From contig JYFJ02004054.1 of assembly GCA_000934665.2 (NCBI GenBank), positions 1 through 35,742 of the forward strand: 35,742 nucleotides of DNA, read 5' to 3'. The stretch's first letter is position 1. Every line of letters begins with the position of its first letter. This DNA comes from Catajapyx aquilonaris. Its lineage: Eukaryota. Of the stretch, positions 4,162 through 33,965 are shown in pieces. The notes beneath the pieces were generated by a model. The model was given only the letters and a program-made list of their open reading frames with translations. It had not been told where the DNA came from and searched no databases. Both the position numbers and the translations under genes were made by a program.

Positions 4162-4770
4162 TTAGAAATCACGTTCGAATTTTGAAATGGAACAGTTCCA
4201 AGGCCGGCATAGTGGGGCGTAGACGGTCCGGGGTTGGGTGCCGAGTGCTACTACTGCTGTTCGCGCACGGGGTCTCGGATCGCATTATTTTCATTACCAA
4301 AGGACCCTCCACGGCTCTCGAGTTCACGGTAGAAGAACAAGCCCGTCCCGCCACAAGATGGACATAGCAGCGGGGGGTACATCTTCCTGTCATGACCATG
4401 TTCAGCATGCATCATGACCAGTGTGTACAGTGGCCTACCGTGGTGTGTATTGTATAGCGCAGAGTGTGGGATTGTAGTGGAAATCAATAAACTTCTGGCA
4501 AATAATATTTGCTTTTCGTGATGGTTTTTTATTCACAGGTCTTCTACATCGTGTTTTGTCGTCATTTTTTACACCAACGAGAGTATACTAGTACCTATGA
4601 CTTATTTCCAACCTCTGGGGCTTTTATTGCCATATTTCCGGCACTGCCTCGATCTACCGTATTGTACAATACAGTATCGAGTTTGGCTGCCGACTCGCCA
4701 GGTGGCAGGTCAGTCGATTGGAGACACGGTTGCTATGCTACCAGCTGTTTTTTCCACTCTTCCTATAGGT

Positions 4771-14088: not shown

Positions 14089-14171
14089 CTTTAGAGAGAG
14101 AAAAATAGCTGAAGGGGGCATAACGCAGATATTGTTTCACATGACATGTATCTTAGGCCAAGCACAAATCA

Positions 14172-16189
14172 CGTGAGTCCACCTGTTGAGTTTATGCCGC
14201 ACACTCGGTATGTGGGGCTCCTGTATACAAAGAAGGTTCAACCCGCGCGACGCCCCCCACTCTATGGCCATCGCGGTCGAGTTGGCCCCTCTCCCAGCGT
14301 TAAACTGTCCGACCTTAAAACTGAACACCATAATCGGTTCGTCGCGCGAGTTGAACCTTCCTTCGCTGCCATACTGGGCAGATCTCCGCCCGTGGTTTGT
14401 GTCCCCGGCCTTTTCGATTTGACAGTTGGGACAACACAAGGCGGACTCCCTGCAATCTCTGGCCTCATGCTTACCCGAGCACCTACCGCAGCAAGGATCC
14501 CGAGCTTTGCAAAATTTTGCCAAGTGACCATACGCAGAGCACCGGAAGCAGCGATCTGTCCTGACTAAGTCCTCTAGATTACACTGCTCCATGGCCATGC
14601 GAATGCTGCCCAGCTTCCTGAAGTGACTGTGAAGTGCCGGCGTTACTTCGAGGAACCAATTAAGACGAGGTTGGTTCTGCCAATCCCTACTGCCGAGGAC
14701 TCTAAAATGTGCTCTTGAAGTGGCCGAAAGTCGTCCAAATCGCCCGCGTTGGCTGAGACCATCTCCGTTAACAGTGTGTCCGGGTCGAACCCTCGGGCCA
14801 CCCCTACCAGCCTAACAGTTGGTTTCCTCTGGGCGACTGCCCTTGCCTGAAACCCCTTTTCAGTGAAGGCCTGCAGTAACGCCTCCTTCTGAGCCATCGA
14901 TCGGCAGTTAACCATATATCCTCCTTTCGTCTGAGAGATGTTCTTAAAACCGTCCGATGCAACCTCAGCTGGGACGGTGTTCCTAAGTATGTCCCTAAAC
15001 GAGTAGGGATCAGGGGCCCTAGCCTCCTCGACCTCAATGACTACTGGGTGCTGCTGACTAACCGGCGCCCTCGGAGGAAACGCCTGGCGACCCCGTCCCT
15101 GACTAGTAGCGACCTGGGCAAACGTCGGAAGTGAGAGTGGGGCGGAGGTTGTGGACCCCGTACCCACCCCCTGCTGCTGCCTAACCAACGCTCCGGACTC
15201 CTGTTCCCTGCAGGCGACATCCTTTCTCAACTCCACAATCTCCCTACGCAGGCCCGCGCTCTCTGAGTCAGCGACTCTGGACAATTCTCTTTCCAGGGTG
15301 ATGCAAGCCAGCTCCGCCTTAAGCGCCTGGTTTCTGCTGACCACTAGAGCGAAGGCGTCTTTCATCCTCATCAAGGCATTTTTCGCGGATGTCTGATCCT
15401 GCCTCGTGACTGCAATCTTTTGATTAACCTCCCTTGAGATGGCGACATTAACGACCTCCGCGAGGACGGCCATCTCCCGCAGCCATCGCTCATCTGAGAG
15501 GTCAAATCGGCTTCTGATGTCCTTCTCCCGCTGGGGCCAGTCCTCGGTGAGGCCTCCCAATCCACTGAACTCCGATCCGGCCAGCCTAGTCGACGCCTCC
15601 TCCGTGGGGGCTACCTCCTCTCCTGAGTCCGAGTGATCATCTCGATCTCCATCCACGGCCTCAACCATCTCCACCTCCGAATCAGAGGAGTCCGCCTTCG
15701 CGGCTTCAGTCGTCGACTCTGTCTGAGTGGCCGAGGGGTCGGCGGTATCCTTCCCTCTTTTAGGCTCCGACTCCTTCACGGAGTTAGGAGAGGCCTTGTT
15801 GCCGCGGTGTTTCCGTTTCCTGTCTAAAGACAGTGTGCGTCCTGAGGATCCTGGGGATCCACCGCCAGCAGGTTTGAAGAAATCAGAAATGGTTGGAGTC
15901 CTCTTATCCAGTGGCTGTTGCTGACTGGCTGCAGGAGGCGTTCCTTGTCCTGGAATCTGGGGAGTCCGCGGTGCCCACACCGGAGGCCCGGACTTATCTG
16001 AAGCCGTTCGCAGTAGGACTGATGTGCAAGAGCCTGACAAAGCTCAAGTCAGGCCCCTTCCCTCAAAGAGGTTGAGCCTCAACGCCCTTCTGAGAGTTGA
16101 CACCCCGGTGCCTCAGCACCTATTAATCCCACACAAAAAGCAAAACTGCAAGGGGCTAAGACTCTCAGTCAGACGCTGAGCAGTCCAGA
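14172..16189 (-). mobile_element. R1-clade element A: 5' end, frameshifted ORF1 and first ~38 codons of ORF2, 3'-truncated
   Basis: Three zinc knuckles (CFRCSAYGHLAKFC, CGRCSGKHEARDC, CPNC...NH) and APE start GQFNAGRG...LCIQEPH. ORF1 is closely similar to that of element C. Begins right after the 28S R1-target motif. Confidence 0.92.
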
Positions 16190-16206
16190 CCGTGGATAGG
16201 GACAGT
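16190..16206 (-). repeat. 28S R1 target-site motif between elements A and B (ACTGTCCCTATCCACGG)
   Basis: Same motif at 23592-23606 and 30721-30738. Matches the 28S R1 site CACTGTCCCTATCTAC with one change. Confidence 0.9.
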
Positions 16207-17170
16207 TAAATGTAAAGTTTAAGGAGGACGGCCCGGCATAGCCTTTCATCCTCCGACCTGACCAAGGTCCTAAACAGCCAACAAGGACACTGTGAGCTTG
16301 GCCCAGTGGCCCAAAGTGCTCCTAATTCAATGCTTGAAGAGCGGTCCCAATTGCATCCAAGTTAATTCAAATATGTCCTGTAAAAGAATATGCCTCAGGA
16401 AGTGAGCAAAGAAAGTACAAGGAAAAATATGCCGGAAAAGAAAGGAAACAACATCAACCAACACTGAACGCCAAACTACAACAACACGAACGAAGGCAAC
16501 AGCACGTTGGACGATGGGCACGGAGACAACACGACACAGAGGCCCTCTGCAGGCACAACACTTACACAACAAACGGCGGGACCGGGGGCAGTAAACCACC
16601 CCCGGCCCCCCCGGTAAGGGCTCCAAACCCCCGTGGAAACCGGGCCAGCGCAGGGCGCGACCGGCCAGGGACCCCGGAGGTCCGGCCCCAACTAAGACCT
16701 AATCCTCCTAAAAACGCGCACTCGCCCCCCCGAGCCCAGCCACTACTACGGACCACTGGTCCCACTGACGCCAGGGCACCAATTCCCTGACACCCCGCCA
16801 GTCCCACCAATGCGCCCACCTCCACTGGGACGAGAGGGCGAGTCGCACACGTTAAAAGACGAATGCGGAGACTTACCGCTAATAAAAGTATAATTCACTA
16901 AAACAAGGAGGAACTAATCCCAACACGAACGTGACTTTAAAAACGCTGAAAACCTAAGCTGGACTAAAAGCCGTCCAGCAGCAGCAACGCCCGGGTCATG
17001 CCCCTGACACCCAATGAAAATGACCAACCAGGCCGGCAAAAACGCGCGTGCTCTTCCCATCGGAGGTTATCAACTTCGAGGCTGAAGGCATTGAATCCCC
17101 AAACCCCTGCACCGGCATGCTAAAACCAACTGGCATTCCGGGTGACTGGCCAACCGGCCAAGCCACTAGT

Positions 17171-20100
17171 CTAGACGTTCTCGTCGGCCAGAAAATCATG
17201 AACAGTAAGGCAAAATGCATTGAAGCTTTTAAAGATATCGGTTAGTAAGGAGGCTGCCCGGCATGGCCAGCCGTACCCCCCCCCCCCCACCACTGAGTCA
17301 CGCATGAGGGCCGTCCGGGCTTTCAGCACGACCGGGAGAACGCAGTCGGTCAAAGTATGCGCGGCGTCCTGGAGTCCCCTGCCGCACGGGCAAGCCCCAC
17401 CACAGGCCCATCGCTCGCCCAGTAATTTAAATCTGGCTAGATACGCCAAGTATGGGCCATGATCAGAAAGAAGCCGAGCCACGTGACCGTACCAATGTAC
17501 CCCCGTGGACACGGATGGGGCAAATCCCCTGGTCCAGGGCTTTCCCGCCCTATCCCACTCAGACTGCCACGCCGAAAGTATCTTCGCCTCATGAATGCCC
17601 CGGACGTAGGCCCCGGACTCCGGTACCTGGAAGACCTCGGGGGACTGCATGAGTGCCGCGGCTTTAGCCTCCGTATCCGCCGCCTCGTTCCCAGCCACCC
17701 CCGAGTGCCCCTTCACCCATACCAGCATGATCCGACCCTCCGCCTCGGCGAGCATCCTCTGGCCCTGAAGCACAACCCTGTCCCTTGTTCTAGGACTCAC
17801 GAGAGCCTGAAGGGCCGAAAAGGAATCCGAGATAATCCTGGCCCTGGGCGAACCCGGAATCTGCAAGATCCACTGCAGAGCTCTAATGATTGCTGTCAGC
17901 TCCGCCTGGAATATCGTGGCGTGATCCGGCAGAGGGAGACGCTCAACATGAATCTTTTGGCCCTGACAGTCGTACCCCACTACAGCCCCCCCAGTCCCGC
18001 CCCCTCCCTGCACCGAGCCATCCGTATACGCTTCTATCGCGTTCCCTTGTAGGGCGCATTCGTCCATCAGCCCGATCTCCGGGCAAAAACGCAGCCACGG
18101 GGGAAAGGACCGCCCGTCTCCCCTAGAGCCGAGAGAGGTGCGGTGCCCTGGGCAACCGCACCCGCCCTCCTCCGGTCGAATGTCCCCCGTGCCGATATGT
18201 CCGGAGGCACCACCCCTGCCAGCATCGCCAGGTTCAGGTTCGAGGTGGTTCGATATGTGCCAGTAGTGGCCAGAAGAAAAGGCCGTATGGCCGCCCTCGA
18301 CTTCTTCCTGATGCGAACGTCTCCGGCGCGGTGTCCCCAGACCTCGCCCCCATAGAGCAACATTGGCAAAATCGCCCGTGTAAGAACCACCTTCCTGCTA
18401 ACTGGGGTCATGCCCCATCTGCGACCAGCCACACTCCACACCCGTGAGGCAATGTCCCTGACCTTAGCCGATGCCCAGGTCGCTTGAGCTATCCAATTAA
18501 GCAGTGGGTCAACCATCAGGCCCAAGATGCGGATGGGACGGCCTGTTTCAATGTCCTGACCCAGGAAACTGATTACAGGGTTGCCATCCAGCTCCGGCCC
18601 CACGCGGGGGAGGAACAGGCCCTCCGTTTTGGCAGCGTTGTATTCCAAACCTTTACGTGCAGCCCATTCTCTTAACATAGGGGAGGTCGCTTCCCATTCG
18701 CGTTCTATCTCGCCAGAAGATCGTCCCGTAATGGCAATGATCTGATCATCGGCATAGGCTTGCATGTGGATGGCCGGCCGTCCAAAGTGTCCTATGTAGA
18801 ACCAGTCGTTCATTGCTAAGTTCCACAACAGGGGGCCCAAGCTAGACCCCTGTGGGCAACCACGATCCATGATGAACGTAAGGCCATCGCTGTGGACCTC
18901 CCGAGGTCCCAAGAAGCCACTAATGACCCGAGTGAGACGGCTGGGACAGCCGTGAGCGAGGAGACTGTCCAGAACGCACTGATGTGGAATCGAATTAAAG
19001 GCATTCTTAATATCAAGGGCTACTAATAAGACATGACGCCCCGATCTCCACGCGTCCTTGATCTGCACCACCAACGATTCCACTGCATCAACCACCCCTC
19101 TGCCAGGCCTGAAGCCGAATTGCGCATCATTAAGCCATTTACATGCCTCCGCCCAATACGCCAATCGCTTGCCCAGTAGCCTGTCAAAAACCCTGCCCAA
19201 TGCCGGTGCTAAGCAGATCGGTCGAACATTGCCTTTATCATCCTTGGGGATCCAGACGACCCTGGACTCTTTCCATGAGGCGTGGAAGAGGCCATGAAAG
19301 TAAAGCGAGCGCAATAAGAGCAGCCAGAAGGGAGCAACGGCCTTCAGTATGTGTTGCAGGCAATGGAGTGGCAGGCCCTCAGGTCCCACCGCTTTATTAG
19401 GTGACATGTCCGAGATTGTGGCCCGTAGCTCCTCCATGACTAACTCAGGCTCCTGAGGGGCACTCAGGCCCGATTCCCGACATGCCGCACCCGGGTTCCA
19501 AGACCCGTCGTCACCAGGGAAATATTTCCGAACCAACTGTTCATCCAGCCCCCGAAGTCCAGTGTCCCCCCTGTTTTGGGTCTCCGCTCCGCCTGATCCC
19601 TCAATGCTCCTGCCAAAGGTACCCTTCACTATTCGATAAGGAACCCCAAATGGATCCTCCGCTGAGCTCCGCTGACAAAAGGCATCCCAGCTGGTCCTCT
19701 TCGCCCGGCGAACCTCATCCTTGTACTCTCTCCTAATAGACGCCCAATGCGCCAGACCCCAGACGCACAGTGGAGGCCGCGGTTCGCCCCTTCTAACAGC
19801 CTGCCATCTGCGCCTGGCGGTTCGCTCCTCCTTCCGCAGCCTCGCAAGCTCCGGCGTCCAGCGCCAGGCAGCCTTGGGGCGAATCGTGGCCCTCGGAATG
19901 GTAGCCTCCGCGGCCCTCGTACACACCTCTCTAAAGCCGTCAGCCAAGCGAATCGAGTCCTCCGCTGAGAGGGTCAAGACTCCATCTGTTCCCTGTACCC
20001 CCACCCACTGTATCAAGAGGTCCCTGTATTCCGCCCAATGGGCCTTACCTATGATCCACCTCCGAGATGGGGCCGGGGCACAATTAATGGGAACGGACAT

Positions 20101-20775
20101 GGAGATGGCCCTATGGGCACTGGCCAGGTATGTCTCGTCAAGCCTCCAGCCTTCCGTCGTCATACCCCTAGTCCAGGCAAGATCTATCCAGCTTTGCCCA
20201 TTAGCAGACAAAAAAGTCGGAGGAGAGGCTGGTGGATTGGCCAACTGGAGATCTCTTTGAACTGCCTATTCCAAGAGTGACTCACCCCTGGCAAAGTCCT
20301 TGTAATCCCCCCAGAGTTCAGGCGCGAGTTAAAATCACCCATAAGCAGTATTCTGCGTGGATGAGTCGCAAAGACCTCGTCCAGAGCCAAGAGCCCTAGT
20401 TTGAGCCGCTCAACATTCCCCGGGACCAGGTACACATTTACAAGGGTAAATTCCATGTCCCCCACACGAACCTGGTAAACCCGGACCCCTTCCCTCGACA
20501 GGGAGCTCAGGTGGACCACTCTAGTCCTCCGAGTATATGCTATCAGTGCCACCGGCACCCCCACCTCCGCATGGGTGATCTGTGAACTCCGACGTTTCAT
20601 GACTGTAGGTATGTGAGGCTCCTGCATGCACAGACGATCAAGGTGCCGGGAGAGGCCCCAGTCTATGCCCATCCCCGAGGCTATGGCTCCCTTGTCAGCA
20701 TTAAATTGCCCAACTCGGAACTCGCCACCCACGGTGGGTCGTCCCTGCGTTGTGAAGGGAGGTTGTAAAGCCATG
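17171..20775 (-). pseudogene. Element B ORF2: APE endonuclease, RT, RNase H, CCHC finger (at least 2 frameshifts)
   Basis: GQFNA..QEPH..MGDFN; WIDL..SAH; RPICL, QFGFRPG, LDIKNAFN, GCPQGSSLGP, AYADD; YTDGS, QAEL, SDS, WVKGH.G..GNE.AD; CPCG....DAAH...C. Split over ORFs 20184-20843, 18067-20244, 17171-18067. Confidence 0.93.
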
Positions 20776-20779
20776 CAAG

Positions 20780-22482
20780 TTAGCGCCTCCCCTGCCCCAT
20801 ACGACTCTGGATTTGCTCCTTCCGTTTCATCCAGCAGGGACAATTAGCGGCCCACGCCTCGTGATCCGTGCGTTCGTGTCCCATCAAAACGCAATTAACG
20901 CACTTTTTGAACTCCCTCTTGCAATCGTTGGTCGGATGGTCCCCCCCGCAATATCCGCACCTACTGGGGAACTTACAACCCCCGGCCGTATGTCCATAAG
21001 CAGAGCAGTCAAAACATCGGTCAGAACGAATAATTTCTTCAACGTTCGAGAAGGTGATTCCCAACCGGACGCTGCCAGCCTCCAGTAAAACCTTTGCCAG
21101 ATCAGGGGCAACCTCCAGCGTCCAGTTTTCCCTGACCCCCGAAGCACAAAGCCTCTTCCCGAGTATCCCAACGTGATCCGAAACCGGCTGAAACCGCGCC
21201 AACAAGCTCTCATTATGGTCCGAGAGCATTGTCATGACCTCCCCCTCACTGTACCCTTCATCCACCCCAGTAAGGCGAAGGACCGGGCGCCGCGTCCCAA
21301 CCTCCTTGGCCTGATAGCCCTTCAACTTGAGCGCCTCCAGCACCGCGGTACTCTGGGCCGATGAACGACAGTTCACCCGAATCCCGTCCCCAGATTTTCC
21401 CACGGCCTTAAACCCCTCTTGTAGTATGGCCTGGGGTAGGTCCGCCATCAGCACTCCCCTCACCTCCGCCTGGGACTCAACTCTCTGCCCCTCCTTCAAC
21501 TGCAAGACCACTGGATGCTGTGGACTCCGTGGGGCTTTCCCCGCCGCCTGGGCAAACTATCTCGCCCGTCCACTGGTTCCCGCCGCGGTGCTGGATTTCC
21601 CCGGAGTGGGGCCCGAAGTACTGGCCGGCTTCCTCCGACTCCCCCCGGAGGGACCCGACTCCAACTCCCTAATCTTTACCTTGAGGCCATCTATCACTCT
21701 TTCCTTTTTTCAGCCTTTAGTTGAAGAGCAGCGATCTTCTGCTCCCTCCTGTGTATTCTGCACGAGAGGGCCGTAAAGGCGTCCTTAATGGAAACAATGT
21801 GAGCCCTAACCGCCGTTTGATCCGGCCTATTGAATGAGATCTTACTATTCTGCATCTCCCGGGCTGTGGCCGAGTAGATCCCTTCGCAGGCCAACGCGAC
21901 CCAGGGAAAGATATCAGTCTCGGTAAGGACGGAAATATCCGCGGCCGAGGGCGTCCCCTCAAGCCTGAACTCCTCCACGCCGGACAAGGACGCCAACGGG
22001 GGGGGGGGGGGGGGNGGGGGGACCACGGGCGACGCCATAAGACCCCCACCGCCAGTATCGCTCACTTCCGCCAAAGGGCGCGAAGAAGCCACCGCGGTCG
22101 CCCCCTCAAAGCCATCCTCCTCCCCAGCCTGGTCATCCTCAATAACAGACGAATCGTCCTCTTCATCCCCCGATTCGCTCATGGTGCCTTGTCTGGGTTT
22201 CTTCGCCCTTCCCTTCCCTTCATCCAACCCCCTCTTACGAGCCTTGTCCGTCCTGGCTGGGCCCTTCCCACTGGCTTCATCCGCAAAGAAGTCCGATGCG
22301 GTGGCCCGCCGCGGGCGCTGGTCCTGCTTCCCCTCTCCAAGCGCCTGAGGATCCAGACTCCCCCCCGCGGGGCCCTTCCCAAAGTAATCTGACATCGTAG
22401 TCGGACCCGAAACCCTATTGGCATGTACCGTCTCAGGGGGCGTCCTACTCAGTGAGGACCGTGGCAAAAAAGCATTCTCCAT
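20780..22482 (-). pseudogene. Element B ORF1 (gag-like, 3 zinc knuckles), frameshifted
   Basis: N-terminal RSSLSRTPP, then CFDCSAYGHTAGGC, CGYCGGDHPTNDC, CVNC...DH.A....CP. Pieces 21694-22605 and 20780-21511. Confidence 0.9.
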
Positions 22483-22679
22483 GCACTCCAACTCAGTAGT
22501 GCCAGACCCTCCAACAGCCATGCAATCACAAAGTGAGGCCCGTCCAGTAAGGCACGGCAACCCCGCACGCGACCACACGGGAGCGCCGCCACAGGAGCCG
22601 ACCACTCCACCAGTCGACTCGCCTGAGCACGCACCAAAATCCCCGAATCGCCAAATGGCGAAAAGCCGCTATCCGAATG

Positions 22680-22790
22680 GGCAACCGCCCAAAACCGAGA
22701 GCAGCCAACCCACAGGGCAACTGCCCAAAATCCGAAGGCAGCCGACCCACGAGGCAACCGCCCAAAATCCGAAGGCAGCCGACCCAGGGG
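22680..22790. repeat. ~36-bp tandem repeat (about 3 units) in the 5' UTR of element B
   Basis: ggcaaccgcccaaaa(t)ccga(a)g(g)cagcc(g/a)accca repeated, with nearby actcgccaa repeats to ~22905. Confidence 0.85.
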
Positions 22791-23591
22791 CCGCAACTCA
22801 CGAGGCAGTAAAGAACCGGTGTGCAGCAGCAACTCGCCAAATGGCCGAGAGCAGCTAATGCAAGGACCGCGACTCGCCAAGTACCGAGAGCAGCGACTCG
22901 CCAATTGTCCAGAAGCAGCTAAGGAGAGGAGCAGCGCCCTCAGTCACCGCTACGGCACCGAGTAGCCGCTACTACTAAAAAGCCGCTTCAAATAATCGCA
23001 AAAGTTCCATCCAAGAATTGGACCTAAATCCCACTGCGGCACCCAAACCGCGATGCGCCCAAATGGAATGACGTCACACGCACTTTAAAAATGACTCAAA
23101 AAAGGGAAATTTGGTATCCAGAGCCTCGCCGGTACCAGCTGAACACAGCCCCCTGGCCAAAAACGCACTATCAGCTCTCCACTTCTCTCACAAGCTACAA
23201 ACGTACTTCGTGCGTGACAAATGGTGACGTCACGTGCACCTTAAATGTTATTTAAAACACGAAAATCCGGCACCCACCGATGCGCCCGGACTAGCCGAGC
23301 ACAACGCACTGTCCGCCCGCCCAATCCGACCACAACTTTGTCCACAGGAGGTCAAAATCACCAAAAACCCACAGTTCACAAGTCCTCTAAAACCGCCCAA
23401 AATTGGGCACGGCACCCGTGCCAACCTGGCGAAGGCACCCTCAAAGAGGCCAACTCCTGGAACCACCGGTACCGAAGTAAAAACTAAAATAAAAACTAAA
23501 ACGGTCCAGCCAAACGCCACCCGCACAGCAGGGGATAACGGAGCTCGCTTCAGGCACGACTTTCCCTCTCGAGAGCTAGCTGCCGACTATC

Positions 23592-23606
23592 CCGTGGATA
23601 GGGACA
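23592..23606 (-). repeat. 28S R1 target-site motif between elements B and C
   Basis: TGTCCCTATCCACGG on the minus strand. Confidence 0.9.
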
Positions 23607-25855
23607 TATGAAATGTAAGTTTAAGGAGGGCCGCCTGGCATAGCTTTGAGCCCTCCTGACCTTCATCAAGGTTCCTGAAATATCGGTAAGACACTGTGTA
23701 CTCACCATAAGGGTCAAGTGTACCTAATTCTCCGCAATGCAAACGGCGTCCCTGGCATGCTACTGAATGCAAATATGTCTTTCAAAGAAATGGTCCAAGA
23801 AGTGGAAAACAATAGAGCAAACGCCCCCGGCCCTGAAGGGAAGCCGGGGGCAAAGGAAAATGCCAGAAAAAGAAAGCAATAAAGAAAGGACTACTCACTA
23901 CTTAAAACAGCGAACCCCTAATTACCACAACAGAAGTACAACCCGGCCCGCAACGAGCCCCCCGAGAAAGCCGGCGGGCGCAGGGCGCGACCCTAACCGG
24001 CAGCCAGGAGGGGCCCCGCAAAGCCGGGGAGGGACAAAACTACAAGGAACAGGCAGCAAAGGCGCCCGCGCCCCCGCCGGAGTGAAAGCGACTCTCACGG
24101 GGCCCGGGGGGACACTCGACCCCCCGCGACCCCGGAGGCACCCCCCACTCAAAAACCGAAAATCTTAATACCTTAAAAGCCGTGCATCTACTTCAATAGG
24201 ACCAGCCCTCCCCAGTCCCGCCACAGCTACAGGGGGGGCCACCCGGTGGATAGGCACCACCCCCGCACCTCGCCGGGTGCTCAAACCTACCCCCTGCCCA
24301 CGCGGGGTGGGAGGGGCGAGTCCATCAGGCCCTACGTGGGCCTTCCCCATTACTAATTAAATAATAATAATAAAAAAGAGAAGTTATGCTAAAAAGAAAA
24401 CCCGTATGAAGGGGAAGTGACTAGTATAGTGACAGTGAGCGCCAAGTGACTATGTCCGAGGGGCCACCAACCCCCTCCCCTCAGGGCCCGGGCACCCCCC
24501 CGGCCACCTCTCCAGACGCCTGTCCCTCACCCGTGTTTAGCCTCACGTCCCCCTTAGGAGAGGGACCACCGCAGCTCACTAGGTCCCGCTACGAGCGTCC
24601 CCACAAACTCCGCCGCGGGGGTGCCACCCCATCCGGCAAGTTACATGGTGTTAATTCAATTATGAAAGCGCCGCAAGGGATTGGTGTTGGCAAGTATTTC
24701 ATTAAGGGAGATCGCCGTAAGGGCTTCATGCTGACAAGCATGCATGTGAATCAGATGTTCTCTCGGCGTAAGAATTCGTCCACCGCAAGACAAAACAGAT
24801 TAAAGGAGGCAAAACCGCCCCCCAGGAGGACAGTCCTCGAGCACGGCCAGCCCAAGCCAGTCCGAACTGAAGGGTACTAGTGCAACTAGTGTTACCGTGG
24901 ATACACGGGAGTCCCAGCATGCTAATGAATTCGATCGTTCCCATAAAAAGAAATAAAGAAATGTGTGAGCCCATGAAGTGGAACAAATGAATAGTAGAAG
25001 GCTGGGGAGGCCTGAAGGGCCGCCCGAACCCAAAAGAAAAATGCCAGATAAAGAATAACGAATATAAAAAGAAAGTAGCGAACACCACACTACAAACAAC
25101 AGTATACGAACACCCCCGAGAACGGGGAACGAGAAACAGAGAGACACAGAAGCTACTGAGGCTACTTTACTCTGCACAAGCGGGGTTCTCGTGAACGAGA
25201 GCCCCAGGGGAAGGGCTGGGACCCAGGGAAACCGAGGCGTCGCAGGGCGCAAACGCCAAGGAACCCCGGGGCCAACCCCCCGCCTTAAAACAATGAAACC
25301 TAAACCTCCTAAAAACAGCTGCCTCCCCCCCAGCCCCGGCCACTACTGCAGGCCGCCGACCCCACCAGCGTAAAGGCACCACTGCCCAGACACCTCGCTG
25401 GTCCCATCGGCGCGCCCACCTCCACCGGTTCGGAGAGGGAGACCCAAACTAAAGGACGAATGCGAAAACTTATCGCTAATAAAAATTTTACTTGACTAAA
25501 AAGAGGAGGAACTAATAAAAAGAAAGACCCAATGAAAGAACCCCTTACTACCCCAACCCACCCAACCCGCTAAAAAGACGACTAATGCTGTAGCCAAAGG
25601 CAACTAAAATGGAGTCACCACCTCCTCCGGGGAGAGAGAACCTCGCCTGCCTGAGCCACTACTCCAAACGCCGGATCCTCGCCGGTGTGAAACCACACGT
25701 CCCCCTAAGGAGAGGGACCCACGCAGCTCACCTAACCCCGAACCAGCGTTCCCACCTCTCGCCCAGGCAGGGAAAGCTCCCCCCGGTGTAGACAAAGTGT
25801 ATAAAGAACTAAAGCTGGCGGCGACCGCGGAGGAGGCGGCAAGGCTTAGTGACTG

Positions 25856-28800
25856 TTAAGTATTCTCCTCCGCAAAAAATCGTTCCACCGTTAAACAAAA
25901 ATCATTGAAAGCCGCAAAACCCGACCCCAACCCCATAAGAGCCCTCCTGCCGCAAGGCCAGCCTAGGCCTAGTGTTACGGTCCTCGCCATCAACCGATCC
26001 CTGGCCGCACGGATCTCCGGGAGACGGCATTGGTCCAGGATGTGACCAGCATCCTGTATCCCGCGTCCAACCCCACAGGGGCATGCGCCGCAGCACGCCT
26101 CTCGGTCTCCTAGCAAGTTGAACCTGGCGAGGTAGCCCAAGTATGGGCCGTGTCCTGTAACCAGATGGGTGATGTGGCCATAGAAGAGGGTCTCCGTTGA
26201 TACAGCCGGCAAGAAGGTCCTCGTTGCACAGACTGCCGGCCGATCCCAGGCCGCCTGCCAGGCCACCATCATTGCCGTCCTGAACCTCCTGGTTATGGCT
26301 CCTCTGGTTTCCGGAATGTAGTGATCACAAAGAGGCGTTAGGCGAGCAGCCAACCCCGCCTCCCTGTCTGCAACTTCGTTACCAGGCACCCCCGCGTGGG
26401 CCTTCACCCAACGGAGAGCTACCCGGTCCCCCAGGCGATGTAAGAGAGCCTGTCCCCTGACTGCCATCGTCAGTGTTGTCCTAGGGTTCATCAAGGCTGC
26501 AATGGACGATCTGGAGTCTGATATCACACGCGCTGTGGTTTCCCTCCCAAGGCTGCCTTCCTCCAGTAGTTCCAGGGCCCGGATGATGGTGGCGAGCTCC
26601 ACCAAAAAGATGCCAGTCGAGGAGCAATAGGAGAGCCTCTCAAGGAACGTCGTCCTGCCGCAGGGGTCCACCACAACTAGCGCCCCGCCCGCCCCGCCAG
26701 CGGGGAGGACAGAGCCATCGGTATAGATGTGGAGGTCCGCTGATGCATCATCCGCCCCGTCGCCCCAGGTTATGACGTCGCCTCCCACCCGCTCCCACGG
26801 AGGGGGGAGCCCCATAGTAGAATGTAACGGGGTTGAAGCCAGGACCGCCTTGCGCCGCTCCCATACCGACCGAGCTACGATGTCTGGTGGGACGATCCCT
26901 GCAATAACATACAAAGCGTCATTAGATGTCGTACCAAAGGCCCCCGTGGTGGCAACAAGAAACGGCCGCAAGGCCGCCAGCAGCCGTCGTCGAACCAAGC
27001 ACGTGCCCGCTTTCACGCCCCACAACTCAGCCCCGAACAACATCATGGGCATGATGGCGCTCTGCAGTAAGACCTTACGACATTGTGGGGACATGCCCCA
27101 GTTGCGACCTGCGACCCGCCACAGTCGGTGTGCCATATCTCGACATTTGGCAGAGGCAATCTCGACATGTCGTTGCCACCGAAGCCGACCGTCCAGGTGA
27201 AGGCCAAGAACCCGCATCGTCCTGCCTAAGTTGATTCCGAGACCCCCAAATGAGACCGCCGGGACATCGTCCGTTGAGAGCCTATAAAAGAATAGGGCCT
27301 CCGTTTTAGAGGCGTTGTACGTGAGGCCGTGTTCTGCAGCCCAATTCGTGAGCATGGGCTCCAGGGCCCCCCAGCTCCTCTGAAGACTTATGCGTGACTC
27401 CCCCGACACCAGCACCAGCTGGTCGTCGGCGTAGGCTTGTAGGTGGACTCCAGGAACCAGCCCGGGGGCCCCCAGTTCGAACCAGTCATCCATTCCAAGG
27501 TTCCACAAGGCAGGACCCAAGCTGGACCCCTGAGGGCAGCCCCTATTCATCCAGAATTTATACTTTCCGGAGAGGACCTCTCTCGGCCCTAGGAAGGCGA
27601 TGACGTTCCTGGCGAGGAGCTCCGGGCACCCCCGACGCATGAGTCCCTGGATGATTCGTTGGTGGGGCATGCTATTAAACGCGTTTTTAATGTCGAGCCC
27701 GACCAGGAGGCACACGTCCCGGTTCCTCCAAGCCGACCCGACGCGTCCAAGCAGGGTTTCCATTGCTGTCGTCACGCTCCTCCCGGGTCGAAAGCCATAT
27801 TGCTGGGCATGGAGGGCGCCACTCTCCTCCATCCAGTGCGACAAACGCCTGTTAAGAACCCTATCGTACACCCGCCCCAGGGCTGGAGCCAGGCAGATTG
27901 GACGCACCCCACCGACGTCGTCTTTAGGCACCCACGCCACCCTGGACGCCTTCCACGAGTCTGGAAATAGGTGAACTCTGAATAAAGCACCCAGGAGGCG
28001 GGTCCAGAAGGGCCCCGCCGCCTTGTGAATGTGGCTCACGCAAGCCAGTGGAAGGCCGTCAGGGCCAGGTGCCTTGTTGCCCGTCATGTCTCGTGCAACC
28101 GACAGCAGCTCGACTGCAGCTATGTCGGCCTCCAGAGGACCGCCCTCGGCAGGTTCATAAGCAGAAGGGTCCCAGGTGCCGTCGTCCGGTGGGAAAAACC
28201 TGCTGACTAGCTCCCTATCCAGCGCCTCGAGGTCGGGTCCAACCGTCCCCTCGACCCCCCTGGAGGACTCAACCGGCTGACCAAAGGATCCCTTCAGGAT
28301 TCGATACGGAACGGAAAAAGGATTCTCGTCCGACGCCGTCTCACAGTATTTCCTCCAGCTGTCAACCCTATGCTCTCTGAGAGCAGTGTTGTACCGCCGG
28401 CGTGAGTCCCTCCACTCGTCGCCCTTTCTGGCCTCCAAAGAGGGATCGCCCCCACGAACAGCCTGGAAAGCTTTCCTCAGTACCCTCGTCTCCTTCCTGA
28501 GGCGGGCCAGTTCAGGGGACCAGAAGCCGTAGGCGCGGGTGCGGACCTTCCGTCGTGGGATGCATTCCTCCGCCGCTCGCATGCATTCCAGTTGAAATTC
28601 CATCGCTACGCCCTCCAGGTCAGCCGAGTCCCTCTCATAAGGGTCCGGTTGTTGATTCGCCCATTCCGCGACATGCTGCTCGTATTCGTCCCAATGAGCC
28701 TGAGACCAGGCCCACTGGAGGGTTGGAGCAACTGGGCCATCCCTGCAGACGCCGAACGTGATCATAGCATGATCGCTGGTAAGCTGTTCACGTGTGTTAG

Positions 28801-29386
28801 TCCATCCCACGATGTCCAGGTCCCTGTGCCATGAAAGGTCAATCCAGCTGGTTCGCCCTCCATGGTCGTAAGTGGGCGGCGATGGGACGACGTTCCCCAG
28901 ACTCAAGTTAGTAATGGTGGCCCAGTGGAGAACCGCCCTGCCCCGCGGAGAATCAAGCCGATCGCCCCAGCGCTGTAAGCGGGCGTTGAAATCCCCGAGC
29001 ATCAGAAGGCGGGTGGACGCGGCAGTGACAACCTCCTCGAGCCGAGTTAACCCCTCCTGGATGTCACTTTTGGGCGGCAAATAGATATTCACCAGCGTGA
29101 ACTCGAGATCCCCCGACCTAATGGTGTATGACATAATGGTGGGACTGGACAGAGTGGCCAGGTTGACGACCCTAATACCCCTGGAATAAGCGACCAGAGC
29201 TACCGATGCCTCCTCAGCTGTATGAGTGACCCTGTTGAGTTTATGCCGTAAGCTGGGAACGTGCGGTTCCTGGATGCAGAGGAGATCAAGGCCTCGAGCA
29301 GCTCCCCACTCAATCGAAGCACTGGTGGCGTTGGCCCCGCCCCCAGCGTTGAACTGGCCGATGTTGAGAGGTGAACTAGAGCCCAT
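25856..29386 (-). CDS. Element C ORF2: APE-RT-RNase H-CCHC polyprotein, 1176 aa
   Basis: GQFN, QEPH, GDFNA, WIDL, SDH; KAPGPDG, QYGFRPG, LDIKNAFN, PQGSSLGP, YADD; YTDGS, VEL, SDS, WVKAH.G..GNE.AD; CPCG......AGH...C. No stops. Confidence 0.96.
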   Translation of the reverse strand: MGSSSPLNIGQFNAGGGANATSASIEWGAARGLDLLCIQEPHVPSLRHKLNRVTHTAEEASVALVAYSRGIRVVNLATLSSPTIMSYTIRSGDLEFTLVNIYLPPKSDIQEGLTRLEEVVTAASTRLLMLGDFNARLQRWGDRLDSPRGRAVLHWATITNLSLGNVVPSPPTYDHGGRTSWIDLSWHRDLDIVGWTNTREQLTSDHAMITFGVCRDGPVAPTLQWAWSQAHWDEYEQHVAEWANQQPDPYERDSADLEGVAMEFQLECMRAAEECIPRRKVRTRAYGFWSPELARLRKETRVLRKAFQAVRGGDPSLEARKGDEWRDSRRRYNTALREHRVDSWRKYCETASDENPFSVPYRILKGSFGQPVESSRGVEGTVGPDLEALDRELVSRFFPPDDGTWDPSAYEPAEGGPLEADIAAVELLSVARDMTGNKAPGPDGLPLACVSHIHKAAGPFWTRLLGALFRVHLFPDSWKASRVAWVPKDDVGGVRPICLAPALGRVYDRVLNRRLSHWMEESGALHAQQYGFRPGRSVTTAMETLLGRVGSAWRNRDVCLLVGLDIKNAFNSMPHQRIIQGLMRRGCPELLARNVIAFLGPREVLSGKYKFWMNRGCPQGSSLGPALWNLGMDDWFELGAPGLVPGVHLQAYADDQLVLVSGESRISLQRSWGALEPMLTNWAAEHGLTYNASKTEALFFYRLSTDDVPAVSFGGLGINLGRTMRVLGLHLDGRLRWQRHVEIASAKCRDMAHRLWRVAGRNWGMSPQCRKVLLQSAIMPMMLFGAELWGVKAGTCLVRRRLLAALRPFLVATTGAFGTTSNDALYVIAGIVPPDIVARSVWERRKAVLASTPLHSTMGLPPPWERVGGDVITWGDGADDASADLHIYTDGSVLPAGGAGGALVVVDPCGRTTFLERLSYCSSTGIFLVELATIIRALELLEEGSLGRETTARVISDSRSSIAALMNPRTTLTMAVRGQALLHRLGDRVALRWVKAHAGVPGNEVADREAGLAARLTPLCDHYIPETRGAITRRFRTAMMVAWQAAWDRPAVCATRTFLPAVSTETLFYGHITHLVTGHGPYLGYLARFNLLGDREACCGACPCGVGRGIQDAGHILDQCRLPEIRAARDRLMARTVTLGLGWPCGRRALMGLGSGFAAFNDFCLTVERFFAEENT

Positions 29387-30617
29387 AGTCAGTTCGTCGC
29401 GCTAGTTGGACTTTGCGTTTTTGCCACGCTGGACAACTTTCCGCCCACGCCCCGTGGTCCGTCCTTGAGGCCCCCTCCAGTTTGCAGTTGGGACAGCATA
29501 GAATGGACTCTCGACAGTCCCGGGCCTCGTGCTTTCCCGAACATTTGCCGCAACAGGGATCCTTCGCCTTACAAAAGCGCGCAGTGTGGCCATAGGCCGA
29601 ACAGCGGAAGCATCTGTCGGTACGCACGATGTCCTCCAGACGACACACCTCCATGTCCACCCGGAGCGACCCAAGCTCCCGGAGGCAAGCATGTAGTGCG
29701 GGCGAGACTTCCAAGAACCAATTCTGCCTGTCTCCGAACTGCCAATCACGAGAACCCAGAACCCGCATGTGCTCCGGCAAAGGAAGAAACCGACCGAGAC
29801 TCTCGGCGTTTCTGGAAGCGATATCCGTTAGTAGGGTATCTGGGTTAAACCCGTCTATGGTGCCAACGAGCCGGACTGTAGGTTTGCGCTGGTTAGCTGC
29901 CCTAGCCGTGAACCCTTTCTCAGCAAGCACCTGAAGGACGTGATCCTTCTGGGCTGCGGAGCGACAACCGACCCGGAATCCACTTTTGATTTTAGAGACC
30001 GCCCTGAACCCCTCGTTGATGATGGCGGCTGGCATCACTCCCCGCAGGATCTCCCTTACCGCGTACGGGGTGGGAGCCACCGCCTCCTCTACATCAACTA
30101 TCACTGGATACTGAGGGCTCAAGGGAGCCCTTGGTGGGAAACTGGGACGAGAGGAAGAGGAACCCTGACCGCCCAACAATTGTGCAAATGTCGGCGCCGC
30201 TGCGCCCCCAGACGCCCCCGGAACGGCGGGTTGCTGAGACACCAAGGTGGCTGCCACTTCCGCTTGTCGAGTCAAGTCCTTCCGCAGGCCCGAAATCTCC
30301 TGACGGAGTCCCGCAGCCTCGGAGTCCACTAGTGAACCTGCCTCCTTCTGAATAGTCAGACAAGCGACCTCGCCCCTCAGTGCCAGATTCCTCCCGATAA
30401 CAACTGCGAAAGCGTCCTTAAGCCGGAGGAGAGCCTGCTTGGCTGCCCCCTGATCCTGCCGAGTCAAGGCGATCTTCCCGTTGACCTCCCTAGAAATGGC
30501 GGCATGTACGAGCTCGATGAGAACAGCGGACTCCTGCTGCCAGCCCTCGTCAGAGAGATCAAACCGGCTCCGAATGAGCGCTTCACGCAAGGGCCAGTCA
30601 TCTCCCAGGCCTGCCAT
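29376..30617 (-). CDS. Element C ORF1 (gag-like, 3 zinc knuckles), N-terminus incomplete
   Basis: CFRCSAYGHTARFC, CGKCSGKHEARDC, CPNC...DH.A..ESCP. Overlaps the ORF2 ATG by 11 nt. Alignment with element A shows roughly 160 N-terminal residues are missing. Confidence 0.92.
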   Translation of the reverse strand: MAGLGDDWPLREALIRSRFDLSDEGWQQESAVLIELVHAAISREVNGKIALTRQDQGAAKQALLRLKDAFAVVIGRNLALRGEVACLTIQKEAGSLVDSEAAGLRQEISGLRKDLTRQAEVAATLVSQQPAVPGASGGAAAPTFAQLLGGQGSSSSRPSFPPRAPLSPQYPVIVDVEEAVAPTPYAVREILRGVMPAAIINEGFRAVSKIKSGFRVGCRSAAQKDHVLQVLAEKGFTARAANQRKPTVRLVGTIDGFNPDTLLTDIASRNAESLGRFLPLPEHMRVLGSRDWQFGDRQNWFLEVSPALHACLRELGSLRVDMEVCRLEDIVRTDRCFRCSAYGHTARFCKAKDPCCGKCSGKHEARDCRESILCCPNCKLEGASRTDHGAWAESCPAWQKRKVQLARRTDYGL

Positions 30618-30722
30618 GCCGAATGTGGGACCCCCTGGGGGCTGATCTGCAGAACCACCGCCGTCACTTTGGGCGCGCGAAGTGCTCCCCCCCCCCCCCC
30701 CCCCCCCCNCCCCCCGGGCCCC

Positions 30723-30784
30723 GTGGATAGGGACAGTGCCGCAGTGGGAATCTCGTTAATCCATTCATGCGCGTCGCTAATTAG
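30723..30784 (-). rRNA. 28S: 28S rRNA fragment ending at the R1 site
   Basis: CTAATTAGCGACGCGCATGAATGGATTAACGAGATTCCCACTG[cggcactg]TCCCTATCCAC matches the conserved eukaryotic LSU segment downstream of the R2 site. Confidence 0.95.
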
Positions 30785-31050
30785 TTTAGTTTAGTTTATT
30801 CGGAAGAAGCCAAAGCAACTATGGCTATCTGGCTGTAAGAAGAAGCAAAGGTGGGACAGATGGAGGGAGAAACGAAGTGGAAAAAGAAGAGAGGAAAGAC
30901 TGGCATCTCTCTTAGTCTGTCTCCTATCCCAAAGACCTGTCCGGCTTGGGTGGCCCTACCAGTAGACGAAGCTACGGCCGGCATAGCTCTTGGGGTCACG
31001 GGAGAAACGCAAACCCCACCACCACGATAAGGTGGAGATACCATCGGGGG
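30785..31050 (-). mobile_element. 266-bp non-coding retroposon (SINE/SIDE-like) inserted in 28S with 12-bp TSD
   Basis: Exact direct repeat CTAATTAGCGAC at 30773-30784 and 31051-31062. 3' end AATAAA(CTAAA)2. The head resembles RTE-clade 5' UTRs. Confidence 0.85.
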
Positions 31051-31081
31051 GTCGCTAATTAGGCGACGAGGCATTTGGCTA
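31051..31081 (-). rRNA. 28S: 28S rRNA fragment starting at the R2 cleavage site
   Basis: TAGCCAAATGCCTCGTCGCCTAATTAGCGAC, the canonical downstream flank of R2 (TTAAGG^TAGCCAAATGCC). Confidence 0.95.
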
Positions 31082-32020
31082 TATAACTGATGTTTATTGA
31101 CCTCATGCGTTAGGTACAAACATTTTAAGACAACTTCCGGGTGAGTTTGTCCCCCCGTTGGGACTTACAAAATGACGGACTATTGTCCACAAACGAATTT
31201 ATATAATTAAAGACATCACACACTAACTAACACAACATACTCAATCATTGGGCGAAGTGGAAGGGTTTTCATTCATCCATAAAAACTTGGAGAATGTGCA
31301 CCGTGTCCGCGATTATGTCTCTGCTGATCGCTCTGAGCAGGCCCTTCCCACGAATGCCCAGTTCCTCCAGAGTTGTTACTGTTGCTCGGGGTATTAGCCC
31401 TGTTGCTCCAAACGCTAGTCCTTTTACGTCACCTCGTTGGCCTTGCAGTTCTTTGACGAAATAACGGTATCAGGGGACGGTACTTGTCTTCCTTCTCCCC
31501 AGCTGCCGCTTCCATGCTCCCTGCTGTCTCCATCCTTACAGTCACGTCGAGGATGATGACTCTTCCTTCCTCGGTTTTCACAACCAGGTCTGGAATCCAT
31601 ATTTTGCCACCTTTCTCCCTCCTGGGTTGTTCGATGATCTGGTGGCCCCGTATCTTAAGCGCGGCCACGATGTGCTGTTGTACTTTGTTGTGGCGCCCGA
31701 TTCTCTGCTTCTTCACGAATCGGCACCAGCCGGATATATGTCCCAAGGACTCTACCGGCCATCCACATCGTCGGCATTGCTTCTGGAGGTGCGGTCTTCC
31801 TCTCGTTGTCGCCTCTCGCACTGGATATGTGTTGGTCCTGACTTGCAGCGCCGCACACCAGGTTCCCGCCTGCATCCCTTGGCCTCTGAGGTTCGGCTCC
31901 ACCCACCAATTGGATTCTCTGTTGTCTTCTCCATGCAGCACTCCTCGTCCTTCGACTTTTAGTGCTGCCCACTTCTCTTGGTAGTGTTCCCGAAACTCCC
32001 CTGGATTTCTATAAGGGACA
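31082..32020 (-). mobile_element. 5'-truncated R2 retrotransposon (CCHC + restriction-like endonuclease, frameshift near 31430, stop 31241-31243, ~160-nt 3' UTR)
   Basis: SN.W, ALQVRTNTYPVRE, CRRC...ESLGHISGWC, RIGRHN, PDLV, ILDVTV, KEDKY, then FGATG in a shifted frame. The 3' end joins TAGCCAAATG precisely. Confidence 0.95.
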
Positions 32021-32152
32021 AACAAACTCTTAAACAAACTCTTAAACTCTCAAACAAACTTCCTTATGCTGACATGACATGAGAGTACAGTTAAATTTCC
32101 AATATTATTATAATATTAATAATTGTCTGTGACAATATATTCTCTCACTTAC

Positions 32153-33965
32153 CAAAGCTCTCTTCAATTGTGGGTTGGCCTGCTGCTTCTCCTCAATCTC
32201 TTGGAGGTCACCTTCACTCTTTGCAGGTAGCGATGGCAAATAAGAGGATGATGAATCTTTAGAATTTAAAAAAAAAAAGTGTTACTAAGAAAAATCACTC
32301 TCCTTTGAAGTATTATTACAGTCAATATAAGTTCCCGTCCCGGCCGCGGGAGGCTGGCAGGTGACACGGAGACAGGTGCTGCTGTGTTTGGCTGTGAGGT
32401 ACATTCGCAGTCGCCAACCTGGCCAAGAGTGAACTTGGTGTGCTGCGTAATAGCTGCGGTACACGGTCGAAAAATGTCCAAGGAGGACGAACGGCCAGTA
32501 ATTAAGTTCCTGTGTGCAGAGGGAGCGGCACCGAAGATGTTTCATACACGCATGAGGGCTGTGTATGGAGACACTTGCGTGGCGTACTCGACAGTGAAGG
32601 ACTGGGTACGCCATTTCCGCAGTGGTTGACAAGGCACGTCGGACATGGCACGGGCAGGCCGACCTGTTACCGCCTCCAACGATGCAAGCCTCTAGTGTGC
32701 GTCGAGGGGTTGGTTCAAAGTGATCGGCGCTTGTCCATCGACAGGATTGCTGAGCAGGCATGCATCAGTCACGGCACGGCGTACAACATCGTGAATAACG
32801 TCCTTGAGTATCGCAAGGTGTGTAACCAGTGGGTCCCACGCAACCTCACCGCAGATCAACGCACGTTGCGAATGAGCCTGTCATTGCAACACCTGCAGCG
32901 GTACGAGCAAGAGGGCAACTCCTTCCTCATGCGTGTTGTTGCGGGAGACGAATCATGGTGCTCTCCATACACAGCCCTCATGCGTGTATGAATCTCCTTC
33001 GGTCCCGCTCCCTCTGCACACAGGAACTGAATTACTGCCCGTTCGTCCGCCTTGGACACACCAGATATGGTGAACGACATTTTTCGACTGTGTACCGCAG
33101 CTATTACGCAGCACACCGAGTCCACTCTTGGCCAGGTTGGCGACTGCACCTCACAGCCAAACACAGCAGCACCTGTCTCCGTGTCACCTGCCGGCCTCCC
33201 GCTGCCGGGACGGGAACTTATTGACTATCGTATACCTAATATATATGTGGGTGAGAGTTGGATGACAATATATTATGTAGTGGTCAACCACTCTCAGGAA
33301 GGAACTAAGAAACTATAAGAGAATATATAGTGGCCATTAACTGTCCATTTGTGCACCATTTCTGAACTTTTAATTTGCCAGAAATTGTGGTACAGGTAAC
33401 TTTTAAAACTGAAGTTACCTTGCAAAGTAGCACATTGTGAGGTTACAGGAAAGCTAACGTATCTATTTGCTGGCGTATTAACTGTATAGTTTACCCTACT
33501 AACAATAATTGTATGCCGGAAATGAAGGGAGACTCTCACCTTGTGGGTCACTGCTTGCTGCAGTAGTTGATGGTAAGCTGCTCGTCCCAGTCGTCATTAG
33601 GTGTGTCAGGACAGAATCTACTGTCGCTTGTACTTGATTCACACCAACACGTAGGATTCCCAAGGTCCTCAACACTTGAGTTTGAAATTCTTAAAAATGG
33701 AAAATATATCAGTTAGTTTTTAAATTCATTCAATACATACAGGTTCAAGTTACAAGTCTTCCTGAGGCAGGGCAAGTGATAATGCCACAAAAAAACTTCT
33801 GACAATATATTGTTATACCCTTATGGTTCATCTGTCATGCTCAATGTAAAGTTTGGGAATGAAGTAATATGGCTCAGTGTGCCATACTAACCAGCTTGCT
33901 TCTGCTCCATTCGTCGCTCCCAATCAGCACGGTGTTCCACCAGTGACATAGTGTGTGGTTATTAT
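32153..33965 (-). pseudogene. Three in-frame spliced exons (33892-~33965, 33540-33689, 32153-32256) of a DUF4806-like protein, probably the accessory gene of an EnSpm/CMC transposon
   Basis: GT-AG junctions with compatible phases give ...WERRMEQKQA-EFQTQVLRTLGILR...DPQ-DSSSSYLPSLPAKSEGDLQEIEEK...LKRAL|gtaagt. The family call rests on the LP..S..DL..IE motif. Confidence 0.6.
32317..33232 (+). mobile_element. Fold-back mariner derivative (two 5' ends in inverted orientation)
   Basis: Arms ~32320-32570 and ~32962-33227 are inverted copies. Transposase remnant R.VIKFL...YG......TV..W...FRSG, GRP, DRR, WVPRNL, GDESW is cut at the second arm. TA at both ends. Confidence 0.92.

Follow-up and report, generated by a model that had tools for sequence, protein, structure and literature searches.

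An insert in a 28S rDNA remnant as a probable copy of a dispersed short retroposon family with an HDV-like ribozyme-type head

The window analysed in this study (the whole stretch of DNA, 35,742 nt) contains a remnant of 28S rDNA that is interrupted by a short insert. With a probability that we place at roughly 0.77, this insert belongs, as a fairly young member, to a family of short non-autonomous non-LTR retroposons that occurs genome-wide in high copy number. On this reading the family is not specific for rDNA, and its head, of the kind found in RTE-type LINEs, is predicted to form an HDV-like double pseudoknot, suggesting a life cycle that depends on a ribozyme and an RTE enzyme. Retroposons of this kind (ribozyme-headed and non-autonomous, belonging to RTE-like LINEs) are already known, and the family is a new member. 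Its anatomy comprises (i) a 5' module of 150 nt, (ii) a variable, pyrimidine-rich spacer, and (iii) a 3' end whose (CTAAA)n tail resembles a microsatellite.

The insert and the dispersal of its family

The first-pass annotation had described an insert of 266 bp, which can be read directly at positions 30785-31050 of the window, with the element sense on the minus strand. The exact 12-bp flanking duplication claimed for it is present (CTAATTAGCGAC at 31051-31062 and 30773-30784), and the duplicated site corresponds to bases 20-31 of the 28S-like piece starting at 31081 (TAGCCAAATGCC...), in agreement with the earlier placement. On the minus strand the insert starts with CCCCCGATGG..., and its G+C-rich head of about 150 nt contains the motifs quoted in that annotation. 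The middle part, previously called pyrimidine-rich, is indeed composed of 86% pyrimidines (insert nt 150-215), while the tail, said to resemble the start of the target, ends the insert as AATAAACTAAACTAAA and has CTAA in common with the start of the target, whose CTAATTAG follows immediately on the same strand. The following parts were distinguished:

31051-31062, minus strand: 5' copy of the target-site duplication (CTAATTAGCGAC), whose last C possibly belongs to the element
30902-31050, minus strand: head (insert nt 1-149), an HDV-like ribozyme-type module, predicted from helices, covariation, a covariance-model match and 22 related loci
30836-30901, minus strand: middle part, rich in pyrimidines (86% C+T), which includes a T5 run (30881-30885) and varies between contigs
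30785-30835, minus strand: 3' region and tail, AATAAA(CTAAA)2, presumably where the partner reverse transcriptase recognises the element and primes
30773-30784, minus strand: 3' copy of the target-site duplication, read directly and seen in contigs

The last C of the duplication (31051) can equally be assigned to the element as its first base; family copies match through this position, where contigs have loose ends, and their flanks differ beyond it. The empty 28S site was found in one of the DNA runs described below (X3), in which a single contig, of depth 3262, passes from 30772 directly to 31051; the 278 bases between them are missing, and 12 letters are shared at the joint. Since this contig carries only one copy of the 12-mer, the insertion and the duplication are real and not a product of chance, and the empty site is the common form.

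The insert was matched in five DNA runs from two studies of one organism (that of the window), and the contigs were compared with positions 30717-31600. The numbers of contigs found on the insert were 1066 in X1, 1106 in X2, 1150 in X3 and 45 in X5, with likeness to the window copy ranging from at least 99% to below 90%; in X1, 194 contigs fall at 99% or more, 324 at 95-99%, 379 at 90-95% and 169 below 90%. The summed word depth on the insert is 44,000-115,000 (X1-X3), compared with 26.6-31.3 on the unique flank (31107-31600), a figure which is not a copy number and is taken only as indicating an order of a thousand or more. Beyond the 3' boundary (30784), the flanks of 17-22 contigs per run agree with one another at only 0.38-0.41; beyond the 5' boundary (31051), X2 and X3 each have 16 contigs that run on, with a flank agreement of 0.38. 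Partial copies of the insert also lie within contigs of 3.6-7.6 kb at single-copy depth, and no 28S-like flank occurs among the loose-end flank consensuses listed. These observations come from the best-supported of the assembled contigs, and a minority of copies may sit in rDNA.

The copies vary in several respects. Contigs swap or omit portions of the middle (30836-30901), and the number or variant of the tail unit differs, as seen at 30794, where 20-22 contigs per run have loose ends and the consensus ends with GTTTAGGTTTAG (plus strand). At 30866, 30878 and 30976 the window copy departs from almost every other contig; its duplication is intact, and it is fairly young. The commonest differences among the family copies (30835-30999) are G>A and C>T, some of them (e.g., at 30999) in CpG, a pattern that would fit cytosine methylation of repeats in this organism.

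The first-pass annotation had proposed a family targeted to rDNA, with a 28S-specific 3' end, and had itself named dispersed non-rDNA copies as the result that would speak against the proposal. The tabulation of flanks which it suggested, carried out on public DNA contigs, gave exactly that result: more than 1000 contigs per run (X1-X3) carry the element next to unlike flanks. The family extends beyond a single rDNA site, which refutes the idea of rDNA targeting, and the position of the insert between the R2 and R1 sites is a coincidental landing. The landing was helped by the AT-rich, tail-like CTAATTAG, lying in a non-functional, transposon-filled rDNA remnant of 60% G+C, and one copy per window of 35.7 kb is approximately what the abundance of the family predicts. 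We consider the insert to be probably a chance insertion of a non-autonomous, RTE-dependent retroposon, the dependence on RTE being probable from the head and the type of tail.

At the site itself, an undescribed non-autonomous rDNA family with a 3' end recognised by an R4-like or another 28S-specific enzyme would account for the rRNA sense of the insert between the R2 and R1 sites, the clean 12-bp duplication and the tail resembling the start of the target, and rDNA parasites with a ribozyme head do exist in the form of the Drosophila SIDEs (PMC3414825). We nevertheless give this explanation next to no credence, as the dispersed copies, including those inside long single-copy contigs, and the flank consensuses listed, none of them 28S-like, contradict it, and the dispersal also argues against a variant dependent on R4. 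The 3' end points in the same direction. Its tail shows no similarity to the 3' ends of the R2 element and of two R1-type elements of the window, 56-167 of 200 shuffles scoring as high, and in a set of 18 local alignments, which paired the head, the middle and the tail each with six ends of resident elements (the 3' end of R2, and two 3' and three 5' ends of R1 type), it exceeded the shuffles in none of its six comparisons. The best match of the set, one of 12 nt between the head and one R1-type 3' end, was reached by 1 of 200 shuffles in these 18 tests and is regarded as chance. A BLAST search with 7-letter words found nothing of the insert longer than 15 nt elsewhere in the window, and no element sharing the tail, which would be a candidate partner LINE, is present there, whether R4-like or another site-specific LINE. 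The insert thus has no 3' end in common with the resident R2 or R1 elements, as a SIDE-like element would. Both the SIDEs and the present family (W) are short and non-autonomous, with a ribozyme-type head joined to a 3' end of LINE type, and the insert adjoins R2 and R1; the SIDEs, however, have the 3' end of R2 or R1 and are confined to the R2 or R1 site (PMC3414825), whereas family W has dispersed copies and a tail without relation to the R2 and R1-type ends of the window. A false lead is thereby removed: instead of a new rDNA-targeting retroposon, the window holds a common repeat that landed in a dead scrap of 28S, and a repeat that appears site-specific in a single window should be checked against reads before a target is assigned to it.

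Homologues of the head in LINEs and short elements

The stretch of the head that varies least supplied a 20-mer query (insert nt 54-73; positions 30978-30997), which occurs exactly in 22 metagenome loci. All 22 match the insert only within nt 1-142 (75-89% identity); the middle and the tail of the insert have no match in them, and 11-mers of the 28S pieces are likewise absent from these loci. The loci give 18 distinct head strings and represent three families (A, B and C) in addition to family W of the window. At least four families of elements thereby carry the head, their bodies and tails being unrelated.

An endonuclease-first reading frame (AP-type N-terminus) begins 100-350 nt after the head in family A (L015, L022, L021 and L007), family B (L002 and L004) and family C (L014). 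The frame of L015 is 84-94% identical to database proteins, the named ones being 'craniofacial development protein 2-like [Montipora foliosa]', and its more distant relatives are proteins of about 1000 aa from contigs of 3.0-4.0 kb, combining an endonuclease, a reverse transcriptase and DUF6451. We take the name craniofacial development protein 2-like (CFDP2) to be a mark of similarity to the RTE-1 endonuclease, and a single endonuclease-first ORF of about 1000 aa is presumably the RTE layout. The database name and the domain order suggest RTE membership of the related LINEs, and the identification in the first-pass annotation of an RTE-type head is supported, the same head preceding endonuclease-first LINE frames in related loci. 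The head matches LINEs with an N-terminal AP-type endonuclease and not R2, whose copy in the window is 5'-truncated.

Besides heads followed by LINE frames, the loci include LINE copies with internal deletions (L016 and L018) and two short elements at non-rDNA sites, L008 (276-277 bp, with an 11-12-bp duplication) and L019 (252 bp, with a 10-bp duplication). Taken together, the loci support the view that the head is a 5' module homologous to the 5' end of RTE-type LINEs and of short derivatives in related, coral-like genomes. In the literature covered, which did not extend to Ruminski 2011, no description of this head in cnidarians was found, and its absence from print is not claimed.

Two loci have a peculiar structure. 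In L008:1-1020 (on the same contig as L009) the head is followed by about 125 nt matching the 5' UTR of the L014 LINE up to ...AAGGAATAA; with its exact 11-12-bp flanking duplication and no recognisable LINE 3' end, this element is a 5'-only piece. In L006:52-638 the head is split into halves (52-219 and 599-638) by an insertion of about 460 bp with repeated GGTCCAAATCCGC-like units.

Predicted fold of the head and proposed life cycle

HDV-like ribozymes are defined by a nested double pseudoknot, in which P1 stacks on P1.1 and P4, and P2 on P3; L3 and J4/2 form the core, P1.1 consists of one or two pairs, and cleavage occurs at the first base of P1 (PMC4908430). The strands of the head follow the same order in all four families: P1, J1/2 (2-3 nt), P2, P3, L3 (7-8 nt), P3', P1', the P1.1 base, a large P4, J4/2 and P2'. 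In the window copy the predicted parts are placed as follows:

31046-31052, minus strand: 5' strand of P1, whose first one or two bases are target DNA
31043-31045, minus strand: J1/2
31035-31042, minus strand: 5' strand of P2
31031-31033 with 31021-31023, minus strand: P3
31024-31030, minus strand: L3
31014-31020, minus strand: 3' strand of P1
31028 with 31013, minus strand: P1.1 pair
31001-31005 with 30920-30924, minus strand: P4a
30978-30997, minus strand: invariant 20-mer
30962-30975, minus strand: distal hairpin
30910-30919, minus strand: J4/2
30902-30909, minus strand: 3' strand of P2

The fold was compared in 12 sequences of the four families; seven distinct heads were omitted, five being 5'-truncated (L001, L007, L010, L014 and L015), one cut by a contig end (L005) and one interrupted (L006). 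The helix counts that follow use a hand-set, structure-fitted register, covariance-model realignment having left families C and W one column off. P1 is fully paired in 9 of the 12 sequences, in four different sequence versions, and pairs at five of seven positions in L013, L003 and the window copy. Full pairing of P2, again in four versions, was likewise found in nine sequences (8 bp in A, with one bulged base, and in C and W; 7 bp in B), and P4a, a 5-bp helix at the base of P4, is intact in 11 of 12, also with four different sequences. P3 (ACC/GGT) is invariant save for single mismatches in two sequences, and the third base of L3 has its partner immediately behind P1' in every case, this P1.1 pair being G-C in ten (A and B) and A-T in two (C and W). 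The distal hairpin covaries too. J4/2 has 8-10 nt, which we take to be longer than in the classic ribozyme, and starts with a C in 12 of 12 sequences, a candidate catalytic C only. The helices form a nested double pseudoknot, with P1/P1.1 crossing P2/P3 and P4 lying between P1' and P2'.

The uncorrected MAFFT alignment, whose P1 and P2 are shifted by one column in C and W, gave 90.1% of cells paired (82.0% in shuffled alignments) and 15 pairs changed on both sides (6.9 in shuffles), values reached by 0 of 500 shuffles in each case; a slid-partner control on the same alignment gave 42-54% paired. A covariance model of the head (named R1) matched the window at 30900-31053, on the minus strand (125 bits, E 1.6e-32), this being the only copy in the window; a second match at 4244-4379, also on the minus strand (10.5 bits, E 0.38), is regarded as noise. 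This comparative evidence supports an HDV-like ribozyme topology with compensatory changes across the four families, and with such a topology and covariation the earlier idea of self-cleavage appears well founded. What emerges is a well-supported comparative model of the ribozyme-type module with which RTE-like LINEs and their short parasites begin, together with a covariance model that finds it.

Other searches contributed less. No HDV-like family was detected with Rfam, either at E up to 10 in 30000-32000 or at gathering score across the window, and around the insert the matches at E up to 10 are chance matches of the lncRNA type only. A loose HDV descriptor scan gave 101 solutions against a shuffle mean of 28, was equalled by 4 of 100 shuffles and is not decisive; it listed the supported P2, P3 and P1', although with P1 one base off register and a longer L3. 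The minimum free energy fold of the insert (z = -1.56) was rejected, its hairpin GAGCTATG/CGTAGCTT being contradicted by the covariation.

Two other explanations of the head have to be weighed. The size and copy number of the family, its defined 5' end and its LINE-type tail are SINE-like, and a classical RNA polymerase III SINE with a head derived from tRNA, 5S, 7SL or snRNA, for which the likeness to LINE 5' ends would be secondary, could be imagined. We judge this very improbable: ARAGORN found no tRNA in the insert, Rfam gave no tRNA, 5S, 7SL or snRNA match at E up to 10, a T5 run, which is a polymerase III stop, lies in the middle of the sense strand, and the head, whose fold is a double pseudoknot, leads into LINE frames in related loci. 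An unlikely, if more serious, candidate is a conserved structured module of the LINE 5' UTR (acting, e.g., in translation initiation or protein binding), which has the shape of a double pseudoknot and either no longer cleaves or never did. The large conserved P4 with its invariant 20-mer, the long J4/2 and the lack of an Rfam match would agree with such a module, as would the weakened P1 of family W (five of seven pairs, the first position being target DNA, and an internal C-U mismatch, with no variant above 10% listed there), which indicates that the W-family ribozyme may be weak or dead; a possible role of HDV-like ribozymes in translation initiation has also been discussed (PMC4908430). The position of the 5' ends speaks against a module that does not cleave. 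The duplications of L008 and L019 place the start of each element at the first base of P1, and the similarity among the A copies L016, L018, L021, L022 and L011 begins at this same base behind unlike flanks, in both cases as cleavage predicts; the window copy starts one base inside P1.

A head of ribozyme type on an RTE-dependent retroposon, the reading that we prefer, has precedents. HDV-like ribozymes are borne at the 5' ends of RTE, R4, L1 and R2 elements, according to PMC3774820 and PMC6765202, the latter also noting that RTEs have no promoters of their own and that some SINEs use HDV-like ribozymes. The head resembles the ribozymes of RTE, R2, R4 and L1Tc in its extreme 5' position, the strand order P1-P2-P3-L3-P3'-P1'-P4-P2', a 7-bp P1, a 3-bp P3 and a 7-8-nt L3, one P1.1 pair, to which the base following P1' contributes, the start of the element at the first base of P1, and the association with RTE-type LINEs. 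It differs from them in its conserved P4 of about 90 nt with the invariant 20-mer, its long J4/2 and the lack of an Rfam match. The NARTc/L1Tc pair of trypanosomes (PMC3383444 and PMC3185411) is similar in that a dispersed non-autonomous element and a LINE have a ribozyme-type 5' end in common; there, the LINE belongs to a different clade and the module, of 77 nt, doubles as a promoter. RTE-mobilised SINEs, as presented in PMC6007223, have a short unit-repeat tail and a duplication start that matches the letters of the tail, as here, and polymerase III heads, unlike family W; a thymine-stretch signature is also described for them.

The life cycle that we propose is as follows. The element would have no promoter of its own and would be transcribed by read-through from neighbouring promoters, within longer host transcripts. 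The ribozyme would cut at the first base of P1, thereby setting the 5' end of the element, and an RTE-type LINE enzyme would recognise the 3' end and reverse-transcribe the RNA. The same enzyme would nick AT-rich DNA and prime where the nicked end can pair with the tail; in the window, a plus-strand nick after ...CTAATTAG-3' would expose 4 nt able to pair with CUAA of the tail, and a second nick 11-12 bp away would yield the duplication. The proposed priming fits a correlation reported for RTE-related retroposons, between their microsatellite-like tail and the base with which the duplication starts (PMC6007223).

A wider proposal is put forward only tentatively, as we think it more probably wrong than right. 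The head might represent an undescribed, anthozoan-wide subclass of large HDV-like ribozymes, a portable cassette whose expanded, sequence-invariant P4 would have a second function (translation start or recruitment of a LINE protein). Were this true, short ribozyme-headed retroposons would constitute a major repeat class in these genomes.

The 28S remnant and its neighbouring elements

The 28S sequence of the window consists of two pieces around the insert (31 and 64 nt) and two spacers of 14 and 16 nt, and no rRNA gene was detected by Rfam at gathering score in the whole window. The two pieces and the elements that adjoin them are:

31082-32049, minus strand: 5'-truncated R2 copy, with a C-terminal zinc-knuckle and restriction-like endonuclease region (31432-32049) and a 3' UTR
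31063-31081, minus strand: 28S remnant from the R2 3' junction to the duplicated site (19 nt)
30721-30772, minus strand: 28S remnant lying between the duplicated site and the R1-type 5' junction, ending ...GTCCCTATCCACGG
23606-30720, minus strand: full-length LINE at the R1 site, adjoining the 28S remnant on its downstream side (ORF1, 29376-30617; ORF2, 25856-29386)

In a search of PDB sequences the R2 frame (31432-32049) matched the R2 proteins 9nl3 and 9dou (R2Tg) with E of about 1e-25, and its C-terminal domain is far nearer to these than to 8gh6 (E 0.014). As Pfam revealed no reverse-transcriptase domain in 27 frames upstream of the R2 frame, the R2 copy is considered 5'-truncated. A homologue search gave no homologues of the R2 C-terminus among longer proteins.

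ORF2 of the R1-site LINE encodes an endonuclease, a reverse transcriptase and an RNase H. Its best database relatives are at most 28% identical, the sole LINE-type name among them being an R1DM-like spider protein, and in the protein atlas the R1-type ORF2 falls into unspecific clusters (endonuclease, reverse transcriptase and RNase H) whose taxa are uninformative. The 5' junction of this LINE (30686-30720) contains a run of about 30 G on the minus strand, including an N, whose assembled length is uncertain.

Contigs on the flank 31052-31600 have single-copy depth and zero differences. What surrounds the insert is the unique and decayed remainder of an rDNA unit that received two insertions and is filled with transposons, not a working 28S gene.

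Three LINEs of the same type (ORF1, followed by endonuclease, reverse transcriptase and RNase H) lie head to tail at 14140-30720, on the minus strand, divided solely by spacers with the 28S motif (...GTCCCTATCCACGG) of 14 nt (23592-23605) and 16 nt (16190-16205), as if each had entered the target duplication of the previous one. With protein identities of only 48-55% (the second and third LINE against the first), they represent distinct lineages. The spacers read as the duplication typical of R1 insertions, which is of 14 bp (PMC3414825).

The whole window is transposon debris. Fragments of a retrotransposon gag and of a DDE_Tnp_4 (Harbinger/PIF-type) transposase lie at 501-1151 and 8832-9215, on the minus strand. 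Just upstream of the R2 remnant, nested inverted repeats occupy about 900 bp (32327-33221), with arms of 72-97 nt that are 93-96% complementary; they may represent a foldback or MITE-like insertion that severed the R2 element.
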